From a virus (Duplodnaviria; Heunggongvirae; Uroviricota; Caudoviricetes), in the IMG/VR virus record IMGVR_UViG_3300028886_003642: a stretch of 64,000 nucleotides of DNA, one strand, 5' to 3'. Shown piece by piece: positions 39,758 to 53,859 of this stretch (within the stretch, counting starts at the first letter, position 1; each line of letters begins with the position of its first letter). The translations under genes and the position numbers were made by a program. Below the pieces are notes generated by a model. That model was not told where the DNA came from, made no database searches, and worked only from the letters and a program-made list of their open reading frames with translations.

Positions 39758-40915
39758 TTATTCATATCCTGTTTTATTAACAGTACTTCCATTTATGGAA
39801 TAGTCGTTGACCCATTTTATTGGGTGCTGATTTTCTATTAACATCTGATAAATTTTTATAACTACTTCTAGTTTTATCAGCTTTAAGAAGTTCCAGCAAT
39901 TAAAATAATTATTCATGTACAAATTTCTTTGTAATGCAACCATCTCTAAATAATCGAAGACATCTATCTCGTAATCATCATCATCTACTTCTTCACGATG
40001 TAAGAATAAGAACTTAAACACACCCCAGATCAACCAAGGTTCATAGACTGGTCTGTTATTATGAGTTTCACCCAATCTAATAGTTATATTTAGTCTTGGA
40101 TACATACAATTACTAAGCATAAAATATAATAATGAATATTGTAATGCTATTGCTTTATATGTTCTAGGTAAATGTGTTACGTTAAAAGGCTTAAACGAAT
40201 CATCATATACCTTATTAGTAGTAACCATATATTTATCATTAGCTGTATATTCTGCTATACCTTTTGGCATTGCAGACCTTGGAACATCTTCTTCATATAC
40301 TACTCTCCTAATAGGTATTCTAATATCTACAATATATGTTTCTACAGATGCTATACGTTTTTGCATATCTGTGCTATTCTTATATGCTACCCTATTATCT
40401 GAACCGTACAACTTATCCCCCTTACTAATAATAGGATTCCATATATATGATTCACCATAAAGCTTTTTCTTTAATTTTGCTATGGGGAAGAATCTATTTA
40501 TAAGTGAAACATCAAAATGTATCTCAAATTGATGACTCATTTGTATAGTAAAATCTATATGTAAATCACCAATAGTTTCTATATTATCTCTATGTATATA
40601 AGTATTACCATTCTCATCATATACATCAAATGTTGCTGCTGGATAGTCATAAATATATAACCACCCTTCTTGCCTTGTTAATACTTCTTCTGAATCATCT
40701 ATCTCACCAAAAGGTATTTTTAAAAAGTTCCATCCTTTCATAGTAATAGTATCCCCATACCACGGAGATTTCATAGTTCCTAAATCTGGTTCTGGGTCTA
40801 TTACAAATATACCTTGAAAGTATGGTTTTGCAAAATATTTGTCACTTGTAGTCATCCTCTGTAAAAAATATTTTGGCCCGACAATACTTGCCTTACCTAA
40901 TATATTTTCTGGCAT
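39758..40915 (-). CDS. uncharacterized large tail-module protein (385 aa)
   Basis: Member of the 10-gene block between the tape measure and L/J. No recognisable motif. Confidence 0.5.
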   Translation of the reverse strand: MPENILGKASIVGPKYFLQRMTTSDKYFAKPYFQGIFVIDPEPDLGTMKSPWYGDTITMKGWNFLKIPFGEIDDSEEVLTRQEGWLYIYDYPAATFDVYDENGNTYIHRDNIETIGDLHIDFTIQMSHQFEIHFDVSLINRFFPIAKLKKKLYGESYIWNPIISKGDKLYGSDNRVAYKNSTDMQKRIASVETYIVDIRIPIRRVVYEEDVPRSAMPKGIAEYTANDKYMVTTNKVYDDSFKPFNVTHLPRTYKAIALQYSLLYFMLSNCMYPRLNITIRLGETHNNRPVYEPWLIWGVFKFLFLHREEVDDDDYEIDVFDYLEMVALQRNLYMNNYFNCWNFLKLIKLEVVIKIYQMLIENQHPIKWVNDYSINGSTVNKTGYE

Positions 40916-40925
40916 AGGCTATCAC

Positions 40926-42194
40926 CTACCCGTCAATACCTTTTCTTGTTGTAGTAATATCTCCTATAGTACTATCACTATCATCTTCATTTTGTCTAAT
41001 GCTTATACCATCAAACCCAAATCTTCCTCTACGCATTGACATAGAAAATACCTGACACAAATCATTAGATTTTGGATAGCTCATCTCATAACAGAAACTT
41101 GTCTGCATATTTAACATACATACAAAATATACACCGCTTACTTGACCAGCACCTGCATAATTATTTAATGCATCTGGGTCTACTTGCACAGCCATAAACA
41201 TAGGCATATTTAACGTAATACAATTTAATGTATTTATGTTTCTGCCCCAGTCTAACTTACCTTGAGATTGAATATAGCCATAATGAGGTATCTTACCATT
41301 ACCAGAAGAACCACCATAAGGATCTCTAACTGGCATTGATAATCTTTTTCCAGTTACGTTATCTGTACCACTAGATGCCCATCTAATATATCCTCTGCTT
41401 TCTTTTGGAGCATCGTCTATATCCATTCTTAAAAATGTATTTGATATTCTACCACTACTAAGAACAGGAAGTATATTTGCATCCTTAATTTCATGGAAAG
41501 GGTCATCTGCGTCAGAATTAGCGAATAACTCATAAGCTTGCTTAATAGTACTAGGAACGGCAGAACCACTCATAAAAATTCCTCCTTCCCAATCATCATA
41601 CTTATTAAGCATACCAACTATTAAATGTACTGCTCTATAATCCCAACCATTTGCCTGATCTCCACCAACATTTTCAGCTACTAAACTAAATACTAAAGTA
41701 TCTGTTGGAAGTGTAGTATTATTACAATATAGTGTATATGCATTTTCATTTGTATCTGGATTTTCCTGTTCGGTATATTCATAATTCTCATTTCTATTTA
41801 CTACAGGCATACATACAAATTGTACTTGATTTCCCCTATAATTTAATGGTACTAAATACTGATTATACCATCTTTGCGTTTGAGAATACCCTTCTGATAT
41901 AGTCATTGCTACACCTTGATAGCCTATATCAGTATCTGGTGTTGCTATATCCATTGCAGCGTCATCAGTAGTACCAAATGGACTTACATATTCAAATGAT
42001 CTTAAATGAATAAAATACGTATTTGTTTTATCCATAAATACAAACTTTTTACCATCTACAGAAGACCTATCGTATACATTTACATCATCTTTTAATGCGT
42101 CTACTACTGTAAATCCTCTACTTGTTATATACTCAGCCATTTTTTCAATGACTTGATTGGCTGTTTTTAAATTATTATATGCTACATATGCCAT
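40926..42194 (-). CDS. uncharacterized tail-module protein (422 aa), N-terminal region paralogous to 52948..53859
   Basis: Shared N-terminal pattern (A..I..L...G.TV...(x)n..G..F.....T.YI.L.S.E) with the 303-aa protein. Confidence 0.5.
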   Translation of the reverse strand: MAYVAYNNLKTANQVIEKMAEYITSRGFTVVDALKDDVNVYDRSSVDGKKFVFMDKTNTYFIHLRSFEYVSPFGTTDDAAMDIATPDTDIGYQGVAMTISEGYSQTQRWYNQYLVPLNYRGNQVQFVCMPVVNRNENYEYTEQENPDTNENAYTLYCNNTTLPTDTLVFSLVAENVGGDQANGWDYRAVHLIVGMLNKYDDWEGGIFMSGSAVPSTIKQAYELFANSDADDPFHEIKDANILPVLSSGRISNTFLRMDIDDAPKESRGYIRWASSGTDNVTGKRLSMPVRDPYGGSSGNGKIPHYGYIQSQGKLDWGRNINTLNCITLNMPMFMAVQVDPDALNNYAGAGQVSGVYFVCMLNMQTSFCYEMSYPKSNDLCQVFSMSMRRGRFGFDGISIRQNEDDSDSTIGDITTTRKGIDG

Positions 42195-52941: not shown

Positions 52942-52947
52942 GGTTCA

Positions 52948-53859
52948 TCACGCCATCTTTATACAGAAATAAGTATTCGGCCCCCTATCTTGTTTTGTGT
53001 CGAATACTATATACTGCTCATTGCCATATACCAAAACTCTTTCTGCGTCAATATCACGAGTACCAGATACCCAATAACAACCTCTAAGTAAACCGTTCAT
53101 ATCTACTGGGTCATTAGTCTGCATTATTATTGGAATTAACAAAAAGTTATCTTGATTTATAGCATCTGTTTCTTTATAGTTAGGAATTAATCTTTCGTTG
53201 TGTGAATTATATGGAAATACTGTACCTACAGTAGATGGACTTGGGTTTGGCTTACTAGCATTAAATGCTCTCCAAACACCATCTGCTCTTCTAAGCCACC
53301 CTTGATTATTCTGAGGGAAAACAAAAGAACCATTTGTATTATTAGGCCAAGCTTGACCTCTTTGATGTGTATTACCGCATACATACATTGGATAAGGATA
53401 CTGTCTTTCATCTGCTATCGGATTCAAAAATCCTAAATACATAGACTCATATACAATAGACATACGTGCAACTACAATTATTCTATAAGTATCTACAAAA
53501 ATCCAATAAAAATAACGCTCATTATTAGATATAACAAACTCTGGTGTATCTGTCATTGTAATACCATCATGCTTCATCCATTGTTGTAAACTTCCTGGTT
53601 GTTCAAATACACCTAAATGCTGGTCATAGCCAACGCTACTATCCAAAATAAGTCTATCACTAACCTCATGACAACTCAAATATATGTATATATTATCTGT
53701 ACCATCACCAGTACCCATGAATATTGCCCCATCTGTTATACCGCCAGATGTGGTAGTCATGGGGTAAACTGTCCAACCAACAGCAACAAGAGTATCATGA
53801 ATGGCAGTGAATAAATCTAAAATATTATTTCCTTGTCCTGAAATAAACACTAACCACAC
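52948..53859 (-). CDS. uncharacterized tail-module protein (303 aa), first gene after the promoter at 53878-53910
   Basis: ORF. Its N-terminal region resembles that of 40926..42194. Confidence 0.5.
   Translation of the reverse strand: MWLVFISGQGNNILDLFTAIHDTLVAVGWTVYPMTTTSGGITDGAIFMGTGDGTDNIYIYLSCHEVSDRLILDSSVGYDQHLGVFEQPGSLQQWMKHDGITMTDTPEFVISNNERYFYWIFVDTYRIIVVARMSIVYESMYLGFLNPIADERQYPYPMYVCGNTHQRGQAWPNNTNGSFVFPQNNQGWLRRADGVWRAFNASKPNPSPSTVGTVFPYNSHNERLIPNYKETDAINQDNFLLIPIIMQTNDPVDMNGLLRGCYWVSGTRDIDAERVLVYGNEQYIVFDTKQDRGPNTYFCIKMA

Follow-up and report, generated by a model that had tools for sequence, protein, structure and literature searches.

A lateral arm at the tail tip is known from Pseudomonas phage JBD30 (Casadabanvirus; PDB entries 8RK3/8RK5), whose baseplate is described in entry 8RK3 (Valentova et al. 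2024, PMC11445458). Electron cryo-microscopy of the JBD30 virion revealed three lateral "bent arm" fibres, each built of three heterodimers of gp47 and gp48, two proteins of similar fold whose genes follow that of the tape measure (gp46) and precede that of the distal tail protein (Dit, gp49). The arms attach to gp49, whose N-terminal domains I-II wrap and hold them, and to gp50, the upper baseplate protein; they make the phage's first contact with its host and have the type IV pilus as their receptor (PMC11445458). Comparable pairs occur in Septimatrevirus Ab26 (ORF21/ORF22) and Brevundimonas phage BabaJaga (313 and 337 amino acids, aa), where the tape measure gene is followed by the two arm genes and these by genes for a Dit of 568-580 aa, a protein of 266-274 aa and the hub, and a pair described as JBD30-like is gp67/gp68 of Pseudomonas phage Lydia (PMC11946847). 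In the literature that names gp47 and gp48 together with JBD30 we found no description of an arm version with more than two genes. Here we analyse a stretch of 64,000 nucleotides (below, the window) from an uncultured virus of the Caudoviricetes (IMG/VR record IMGVR_UViG_3300028886_003642), in which positions 39758-53859 of the minus strand carry a block of nine genes. Comparisons of sequences and models, together with the analogy to JBD30, make it likely that this block encodes an enlarged set of lateral tail-tip arms of the JBD30 type, i.e. an adsorption apparatus.

The block is an uninterrupted, tightly packed run of open reading frames (ORFs) of 303-817 aa, which we name B1 to B9 in the order of transcription (Table 1; lengths are those of the longest ORFs unless stated). 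A preliminary description, made from the letters of this DNA alone, had already singled out a run of large ORFs of about 14 kb, and both its extent and the sizes of its members hold; it had counted ten genes, whereas nine appear both in the ORF list and in an independent gene call for this contig. The true starts of B1, B4 and B7 likely lie slightly downstream of the longest-ORF starts. All nine predicted proteins are acidic (isoelectric points of 4.5-5.5), none has a signal peptide, and no segment in them attains the Kyte-Doolittle value usually required of a transmembrane helix. The two C-terminal transmembrane helices that the preliminary description had assigned to one member were rejected: the hydrophobic stretches concerned, in the C-terminal half of B3 (583-595 and 607-619), are 12-13 residues long, and the best 19-residue mean of 1.54 falls below the cut-off of 1.6 and equals that of buried strands in B1. 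For comparison we used 15 loci, namely the window and 14 that were fetched (labelled L below, with related proteins labelled P), in which every ORF was classified with family hidden Markov models (HMMs). Structure models (AlphaFold2) cover B1 and B2, and the final hhalign runs used deep rebuilt alignments, the option -M first and negative controls; with shallow alignments, hhalign missed the links between B1 and B8 and between gp47 and B2.

B1 matched phrog_687 ("structural protein") with an E-value of 1e-29, and a tblastn search with it retrieved Ab26 ORF21 (annotated as a virion protein), the 313-aa protein of BabaJaga and about 300 other phage records, the Ab26 and BabaJaga proteins being encoded right after the tape measure. 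A B1 profile of 54 sequences, when run against the PDB, found chains of 8RK3 (E = 4e-13 and 0.012), and the model of B1 (pLDDT 87, pTM 0.89) was matched by Foldseek to 8rk3_K (E = 1.6e-14, TM-score 0.74) and 8rk3_G (E = 1.6e-11, TM-score 0.70) and to no other PDB chains. The hhalign comparison of B1 with the gp47 family gave 99.7%. From profile and model together, B1 is the ortholog of JBD30 gp47, and by analogy it would be the baseplate-proximal subunit of the arm. Fold, sequence or profile homology and genomic slot, by which we recognise the gp47/gp48 superfamily, were all found; a Dit with the arm-holding domains I-II, a further mark of that superfamily, was not.

The counterpart of gp48 is B8. 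A HMMER scan of 1.84 billion representatives returned 98 relatives of B8, and the gp48 family (JBD30 gp48, Ab26 ORF22 and the BabaJaga protein) matched the deep B8 alignment at 97.3% in hhalign (E = 1.8e-11, 278 columns), where negative controls with unrelated families stayed below 1%; the gp48 HMM also matched several B8 relatives directly (P0219 at 1.4e-15, and others). These profile matches show that B8 is the ortholog of JBD30 gp48 and Ab26 ORF22 and a conserved subunit of the arm. B5 is in turn a gp48-like paralog of B8, to which it is homologous over its full length (deep alignments; hhalign 100%, E = 1.4e-43, 353 columns). At about residues 95-165 it carries a charged, helix-prone insert with 21 D/E and 15 K/R among 71 residues, which is what the preliminary description had seen as an acidic coiled coil. 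B7 shares the C-terminal module of about 65 aa of B5 and B8 (hhalign 93.5%, E = 2e-7, 64 columns); its HMM matches B5-type representatives at 8.7e-9, and the protein in the B7 position of L013 is matched by the B5 HMM at 5.5e-14. B7 is the hypervariable protein in the partner position; even in close relatives it is only 22-26% identical.

B2 and B6 are paralogs over their full length (blastp 1e-27; hhalign 100% over 519 columns). In B2 a core of the gp47/gp48 fold (about residues 1-50 and 260-595) is interrupted by an inserted SGNH-like alpha/beta domain (about 60-260), and B6 consists of a gp47-like core, an SGNH-like domain and a C-terminal module that B2 lacks. The SGNH alpha/beta fold is present in the model of B2 (52-sequence alignment; pLDDT 85.8, pTM 0.88), and one Foldseek run on that model matched the SGNH part alone. 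Structure prediction and fold search, which the preliminary description had proposed for each protein, placed JBD30 gp47/gp48 first for both B1 and B2. Compared directly with gp47/gp48 profiles, the B2 core gives a weak signal (hhalign 10-26%); it is collinear with the secondary structure of the B1 and B2 models, and a bridge is provided by proteins of 467-476 aa from loci in Selenomonas metagenome-assembled genomes (MAGs), which the B2 HMM and the gp47 HMM both match. B2 and B6 are therefore cores of arm subunits into which an SGNH-like domain has been inserted. Neither is likely to be an active esterase, because GDP in B2 and GNL in B6 replace GDS, the nucleophile motif of block I; a clear DxxH is also missing. 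The GDS motif is kept in some relatives (P0003-P0006), and at the corresponding position of P0148-P0150 a GDSL domain is significant in Pfam. The loss of GDS also sets B2 and B6 apart from SGNH-bearing tail fibres and spikes such as G7C gp63.1 (PDB 4QNL) and SFP21A Gp09 (PDB 9LNA), as does their scaffold, which is a gp47-like globular core and not a trimeric fibre. Homologs of B6 numbered 14 among 5.8 billion clustered proteins, and a scan of viral contigs with B6 gave no relatives; at 31-50% identity in relatives it is among the fastest-evolving members of the block.

B4 starts with a module homologous to the C-terminus of B6 (B6 727-770 against B4 50-92, hhalign 97%; 99.6% in a family-level comparison), which is followed by a PKD domain, as the preliminary description had noticed (PF00801, residues 193-247; E = 1.7e-7, 31.5 bits against a gathering cut-off of 23.5), and by a variable C-terminal domain. 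Because single chains in five relatives (P0146, P0151, P0153, P0154 and P0157, about 1000-1077 aa) align with B2 residues 11-595 and then, contiguously, with B4 residues 46-245, B2 and B4 are a fission pair, B4 being the split-off distal part of B2-type proteins. The N-terminal 300 residues or so of B3 match the flagellinolysin family NF033876 at 28 bits and E = 1.2e-6, against an equivalog cut-off of 205 bits, and its zinc site reads RVFVD...DG instead of HExxH...EG, so B3 does not qualify as a metallopeptidase. The motif HExxH...EG is intact in L006, L014, L009 and P0150, and the scores against NF033876 reach 9.5e-30 in L006 and 3.2e-25 in L014 (89-104 bits, under the 205-bit cut-off). In a 758-aa protein of L006 this N-terminal module is joined to B4, in an 883-aa protein of L014 to a B2-type core, and P0150 (1256 aa) combines in one chain the HExxH module, a Pfam-significant GDSL esterase and a gp47-like core. 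The N-terminus of B3 is thus a decayed peptidase module of the flagellinolysin type; it is homologous to the module of flagellinolysins, which are flagellins with an embedded HExxH metallopeptidase, but B3 is not a flagellin and its motif has decayed. In L009 the neighbours of B3 are 86-96% identical to those in the window and B3 only 57%, and a replacement of the B3 allele relative to L009 is suggested. The earlier remark that the block shows no enzymatic motif is therefore right at the level of residues, but it passes over the decayed SGNH esterase fold of B2 and B6 and the decayed HExxH module of B3. B3, B4 beyond its N-terminal module, and B9 lie outside the gp47/gp48 superfamily.

No match to B9 was found in Pfam, PHROG, PDB, NCBIfam or PADLOC, nor any detectable relative beyond the clade, and comparison with the N-terminal domains I-II of JBD30-type distal tail proteins gave 0.1% in hhalign, that with gp47/gp48 likewise nothing. 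B9 is encoded immediately upstream of a distal tail protein that is short in this phage: at 413 aa, against 567 aa in JBD30, it matches gp49 at about residues 186-564 (blastp E = 4e-8) and corresponds to gp49 domains III-VI, the fibre-holding domains I-II being absent. In L004, L006, L012, L014, L017 and L018, too, B9 is found beside Dit proteins of 405-415 aa. Because of its gene position and its co-occurrence with a short Dit, and not through any support from sequence, B9 is a candidate adaptor between arm and ring. Its orthologs end in ...VFDLSPNWSY, where the B9 of the window diverges and continues with about 60 extra, unique residues (39758-39950), which may reflect an indel or a frameshift. 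In L007 and L009 a TnpB gene (OrfB_IS605/Cas12f-like) lies between B9 and the Dit gene and B9 is truncated to 295 aa, and the B9 homolog of L012 has a variable middle region with a long Pro/Asp/Trp-rich tandem insert (DPSTWPDP-like repeats).

Among 50,697 phage records, megablast of the whole block and tblastn of B6 and B8 gave no match. Searched one by one in Pfam, PHROG, NCBIfam and PADLOC, the proteins yielded little beyond phrog_687 for B1, the PKD domain of B4 and the weak flagellinolysin match of B3. Contigs with B6 homologs reach 126-199 kb, and in them, too, this series of genes separates the tape measure gene from the BR0599/Phage-tail_3 genes. B1 is far commoner than B6 (at least 162 clusters), and distant contigs that bear B1 hold shorter blocks, such as B1 plus four genes in L014 and B1 plus six in L012. 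The set comprises two genes in JBD30-type phages and three to nine in metagenomic relatives; gp47-like and gp48-like proteins occur at 1:1 in JBD30, Ab26, BabaJaga and L016, at 2:2 in L012 and L014, and at 3:3 in L004, L006, L007, L011, L013 and the window. The order is invariably nested, 47a [47b 48b] [47c 48c] 48a, followed in the short-Dit clade by B9 and the ring protein. The presence and absence of the block in related phages, a comparison that the preliminary description had also proposed, gave a uniform picture: it is present in all relatives, and its synteny with the tail genes is fixed in all that were fetched, even at 47-55% identity in the baseplate core. B1 and B8 are about as conserved as that core (74-96% and 70-92% identical in relatives), while B2-B7 diverge fast, and because of this gradient (Table 1) B1 and B8 behave like the baseplate core and the inner genes like host-range determinants. 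A scan of genome contigs added three distant loci in Selenomonas/Selenomonadales MAGs at about 30% identity, which do not identify the host of this phage of 31% GC. L017 and L018 (Selenomonas/Selenomonadales MAG), the sole taxonomic hint for the wider clade, encode a B1-like protein, a B2-type protein of 467-476 aa that lacks the SGNH insert, a B8-like and a B9-like protein, and then a short distal tail protein, an upper baseplate protein and a hub; such a set may be an evolutionary intermediate.

If the block is indeed an arm set of this type, an ancestral gp47/gp48 pair would have been duplicated in place to give 47a[47b 48b][47c 48c]48a, with the three identical heterodimers of each arm replaced by three specialised ones. 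B1:B8 would be the proximal heterodimer, seated on the ring and the upper baseplate protein; B2, with B3 and with B4 docking via the module that B2 lacks, would pair with B5 in the middle; and B6:B7 would be the distal pair, which contacts the host and evolves fast. The products would assemble as three enlarged lateral arms, which at one copy of each protein per arm would amount to about 4,690 aa (about 0.5 MDa), as against 625 aa three times over in JBD30. B9 would stand in for domains I-II, the fibre holders that the distal tail protein lacks, and the arms would perform reversible primary adsorption. Since the catalytic residues have been lost in this phage, the esterase and peptidase relics would now be binding or structural modules. 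Together with the PKD domain and the fast divergence, these relics suggest that the receptor contact is with surface glycans or proteins. One may go further and propose that a homo-repetitive arm was turned into a hetero-oligomeric organelle: three dedicated heterodimers would have arisen by nested duplication, B2 and B4 by fission, SGNH, HExxH and PKD modules would have been captured and catalysis lost, a pilus-grasping arm set of about 0.6 MDa would have grown into a modular organelle for adsorption of about 1.5 MDa, B6:B7 would be a swappable determinant of host range, and B9 a new adaptor. We offer this further proposal as a tentative one, possible but rather doubtful in its entirety.

Several points weigh against reading the block as an enlarged arm set. 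The stoichiometry, pairing and order of the putative arm proteins are inferred from gene order, copy number and conservation. The arm-holding domains of JBD30's distal tail protein have no counterpart in that of the window, and the geometry of attachment must therefore differ. B7 is tied to the gp48 family through its module of about 65 residues alone, and neither the C-terminal half of B3 nor any part of B9 has an assignment. Finally, balanced pairing is not universal, as two Selenomonadales loci have a ratio of 2:1 (B1, a small B2-type protein and B8).

Set beside JBD30, the window is alike in fold (B1 and B2), in family (B1, B8 and B5), in the genomic slot, with the arm genes between tape measure and distal tail protein, and in having gp49-, gp50- and gp53-like partners. 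It differs in that JBD30 encodes just two arm proteins, each of about 310 aa, whose one 1:1 pair is used three times per arm, whereas the window has six paralogs and three accessory proteins (the 4,690 aa against 625 aa given above), with SGNH-like, peptidase-like and PKD modules, beside a Dit without domains I-II. The hosts differ as well, that of the window being probably an anaerobic low-GC bacterium and not a Pseudomonas with a type IV pilus as receptor. Ab26, BabaJaga and Lydia are likewise distinct from the window, always having two genes, a long distal tail protein and no B9-like gene. The preliminary description had instead compared the block with the genes M, L, K and I of lambda. The lambda series M-L-K-I-J and g12-g15 of the gene transfer agent (GTA) RcGTA do resemble the genes after the block, which encode DUF2460 (g12-like), BR0599 (gpL/g13-like) and Phage-tail_3 (J/g15-like) proteins, but neither has arm genes between tape measure and ring protein, and the window has no separate gpK/gpI genes between the hub-associated protein and the hub. 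Its NlpC/P60 peptidase is inside the tape measure, whereas in tips of the lambda/GTA type the peptidase is on a separate gpK/g14 protein. The proper comparator is the JBD30/Septimatrevirus/GTA-type tail tip, and since the slot normally holds two arm genes in this tail lineage, the block was not "inserted" there, as first described, but is an expansion in place.

The block was also put forward at that stage as a candidate for an undescribed system, a view that was to fall if fold searches assigned all its proteins to known baseplate families or if well-studied relatives had it as ordinary structural genes. Most members can indeed be placed in a structural family already known: six out of nine belong to the gp47/gp48 superfamily, for which a structure was determined in 2024; the well-studied relatives, on the other hand, have the two-gene form only. 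We read the block as a known arm system in expanded form, neither cargo nor an undescribed system.

For the arrangement of the paralogs one may also consider an alternative explanation, namely that the pairs are cassettes of which B1:B8 would be combined with either B2/B5 or B6/B7, so that particles would be mixed or the host range could be switched. Variability is indeed greatest in B6, B7 and the C-terminal part of B4, modules are shuffled among relatives, and the copy number varies from one to three pairs. Nevertheless we consider cassettes unlikely, as the nine genes form one promoter-to-promoter unit in which no perfect internal promoter, invertible repeat or recombinase was seen, and the gene order is fixed, with six loci of the 3:3 type. 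It is also improbable that B1 and B8 are the only virion proteins and that the rest are assembly factors, or enzymes or lectins of the host surface that are released at lysis. The absence of a structural homolog for B3 and B9 and the presence of hydrolase-derived domains would agree with such roles, but B2, B5 and B6 share the fold or family of the arm subunits, B4 and the N-terminus of B3 are covalently fused to the core in relatives, the catalytic residues are lost, and there are no signal peptides or convincing transmembrane segments.

That the block is cargo, a moron or an anti-defence island in the tail operon, a view which the preliminary description had weighed against an unusually elaborate baseplate or adsorption organelle, is already largely refuted, and we give it very little credence. 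In its favour are the lack of Pfam or PHROG annotation for most members, a strong promoter of its own and, just upstream of that promoter, a terminator-like hairpin with a run of T (read from the sequence). The consensus promoter that had been reported before the block is real and perfect (TTGACA-17-TATAAT), but it is not specific to the block: eight perfect promoters of the form TTGACAAA-N12-TG-N-TATAAT are found on this strand of the window, where none would be expected by chance, and all are intergenic, one ahead of each functional or tail sub-module. The late and tail region seems, then, to be transcribed as many short units that depend on the host sigma factor. Moreover, tail synteny is kept in relatives with 47-55% identity in the baseplate core, six members have homologs among virion proteins of solved structure, the variable accessory slot is elsewhere (see below), and there are no defence-family matches, the one that PADLOC gives, to the charged insert of B5, being marginal (E = 0.002, 14.8 bits). 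It is the other suggestion, the elaborate adsorption organelle, that fits, since the members are either homologous to virion arm proteins or modules fused to such proteins, and the block is syntenic with the tail genes in every relative examined. A further explanation, a classical Gram-positive siphophage baseplate (Dit, Tal, BppU, BppA, BppL, gp27-like) too diverged to be recognised, would suit the low GC, the peptidoglycan-hydrolase tape measure and the downstream lectin/CBM fibres, but is hardly credible given that none of the nine proteins matches those families in Pfam, PHROG or NCBIfam, a profile check that had been proposed from the start, that the fold searches of B1 and B2 are headed by gp47/gp48, with no structure of a Dit, Tal or Bpp protein near the top, and that the distal tail protein and hub which follow the block are of the GTA/JBD30 type.

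Although the block lies between tape measure and tail tip, as originally stated, it does not follow the tape measure directly: five small ORFs (53983-56584) and three further perfect promoters, packed in about 480 bp (56729-57205), intervene. In relatives the slot between tape measure and B1 holds Bro-N/ANT/DNA methylase genes (L013) or a Lar-like Zn-ribbon gene (L006), or is almost empty (L014). The cassette of small ORFs is 68-96% identical to that of L012, although B1 there is just 48% identical, and a recent lateral exchange of the cassette is suggested by these sequences. It is this stretch, and not the block, that is the genuinely variable accessory slot of the tail module.

On the other side of the block, the hub gene is followed by genes for four large adhesin-like proteins (Table 1), which from their domains would give the phage, in addition to the arms, another set of fibres, based on lectins. 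Further along, a TnpB gene lies among replication genes, and an anaerobic ribonucleotide reductase points to an anaerobic host. The 31% GC, this reductase, the extended -10 promoters and the peptidoglycan-hydrolase tape measure together suggest an anaerobic low-GC bacterium as host, whose habitat is probably gut or rumen.

Table 1. Positions of features in the window and in related loci; identities are given against the progressively more distant loci L004/L006/L014
Feature	Position	Strand	Length (aa)	Remarks	Identity (%)
Tape measure protein	57209-63178	-	1989	Phage_lysozyme2 + NlpC/P60 (tail lysozyme + peptidase)	
Variable accessory slot	53983-57208	-	134; 76; 275/284; 146; 148	Q-rich (134 aa); 76-aa ORF; N-rich, phrog_16490 (275/284 aa); BclA_C-like (146 aa); DUF7841 (148 aa)	
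Terminator-like hairpin + T-run	~53935-53970				
Promoter before B1	53880..53908	-		perfect extended -10, sigma-70 type, TTGACA-N14-TGC-TATAAT (17-nt spacer)	
B1	52948..53859	-	303	probably 300 aa from start 53850 (good spacing to ribosome-binding site)	90/74/54
B2	51154..52941	-	595		43/41/28
B3	49199..51142	-	647		
B4	47908..49218	-	436	433 aa in gene call; likely start 49209	
B5	46325..47893	-	522		46/35/31
B6	43879..46332	-	817		36/32/26
B7	42195..43886	-	563	560 aa in gene call; likely start 43877	alignable over 11% of length, L004 only
B8	40926..42194	-	422		86/72/51
B9	39758..40915	-	385		81/47/34
Second perfect promoter	39612..39640	-		closes the transcription unit of the block, opens that of Dit, upper baseplate protein and hub	
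Distal tail protein (Dit)	38325..39566	-	413	DUF2460/phrog_1082 (positions 518-896 of 1061); gp49 homolog	87/57/47
Upper baseplate (hub-associated) protein	37432..38328	-	298	BR0599 (PF09356), gpL-like; JBD30 gp50, blastp E 1e-15	79/56/55
Baseplate hub	33528..37439	-	1303	Phage-tail_3, J-like; JBD30 gp53, blastp E 1e-18; phrog_1101, E 2e-108	71/47/47
Adhesin-like proteins	21337-33424	-	1211; 569; 661; 766	13 CBM_5_12 repeats + Laminin_G_3 (1211 aa); CBM_5_12 x3 + Laminin_G_3 (569 aa); Laminin_G_3 (661 aa); TPS domain, two-partner-secretion-type beta-helix (766 aa)	
TnpB gene, IS605 type	10844-11962	-		HTH_OrfB_IS605 + OrfB_IS605 + Cas12f1-like TNB	
NrdD	8001-10220	-		anaerobic ribonucleotide reductase with ATP-cone	
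Other perfect promoters	10278-10306, 29516-29544, 33475-33503, 56729-56757, 56969-56997, 57177-57205	-			
Peptidase-bearing relatives	L009:3423-5321, L006:6186-8462, L014:10979-13630, P0150			intact HExxH...EG module on arm proteins	
TnpB between B9 and Dit gene	L007:16780-18030, L009:14955-16205				
B9 homolog with tandem insert	L012:18572-19879				

With this reading, about 14 kb of unannotated sequence gains a testable identity, both here and in a clade of uncultured phages represented by contigs of about 120-200 kb. An arm that was previously known only as a two-gene, pilus-binding device of phages of Proteobacteria would be widespread well beyond Pseudomonas phages, and expandable. The series of loci with three, four or five, and eight or nine genes would then be a record of how an organelle grows, by nested duplication, fission, fusion and the decay of enzymes to binders. 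For metagenomic phages, B1 and B8 offer conserved markers of the arm apparatus, and a prediction of host range may draw on B6, B7 and the B4 C-terminus as likely determinants of specificity.

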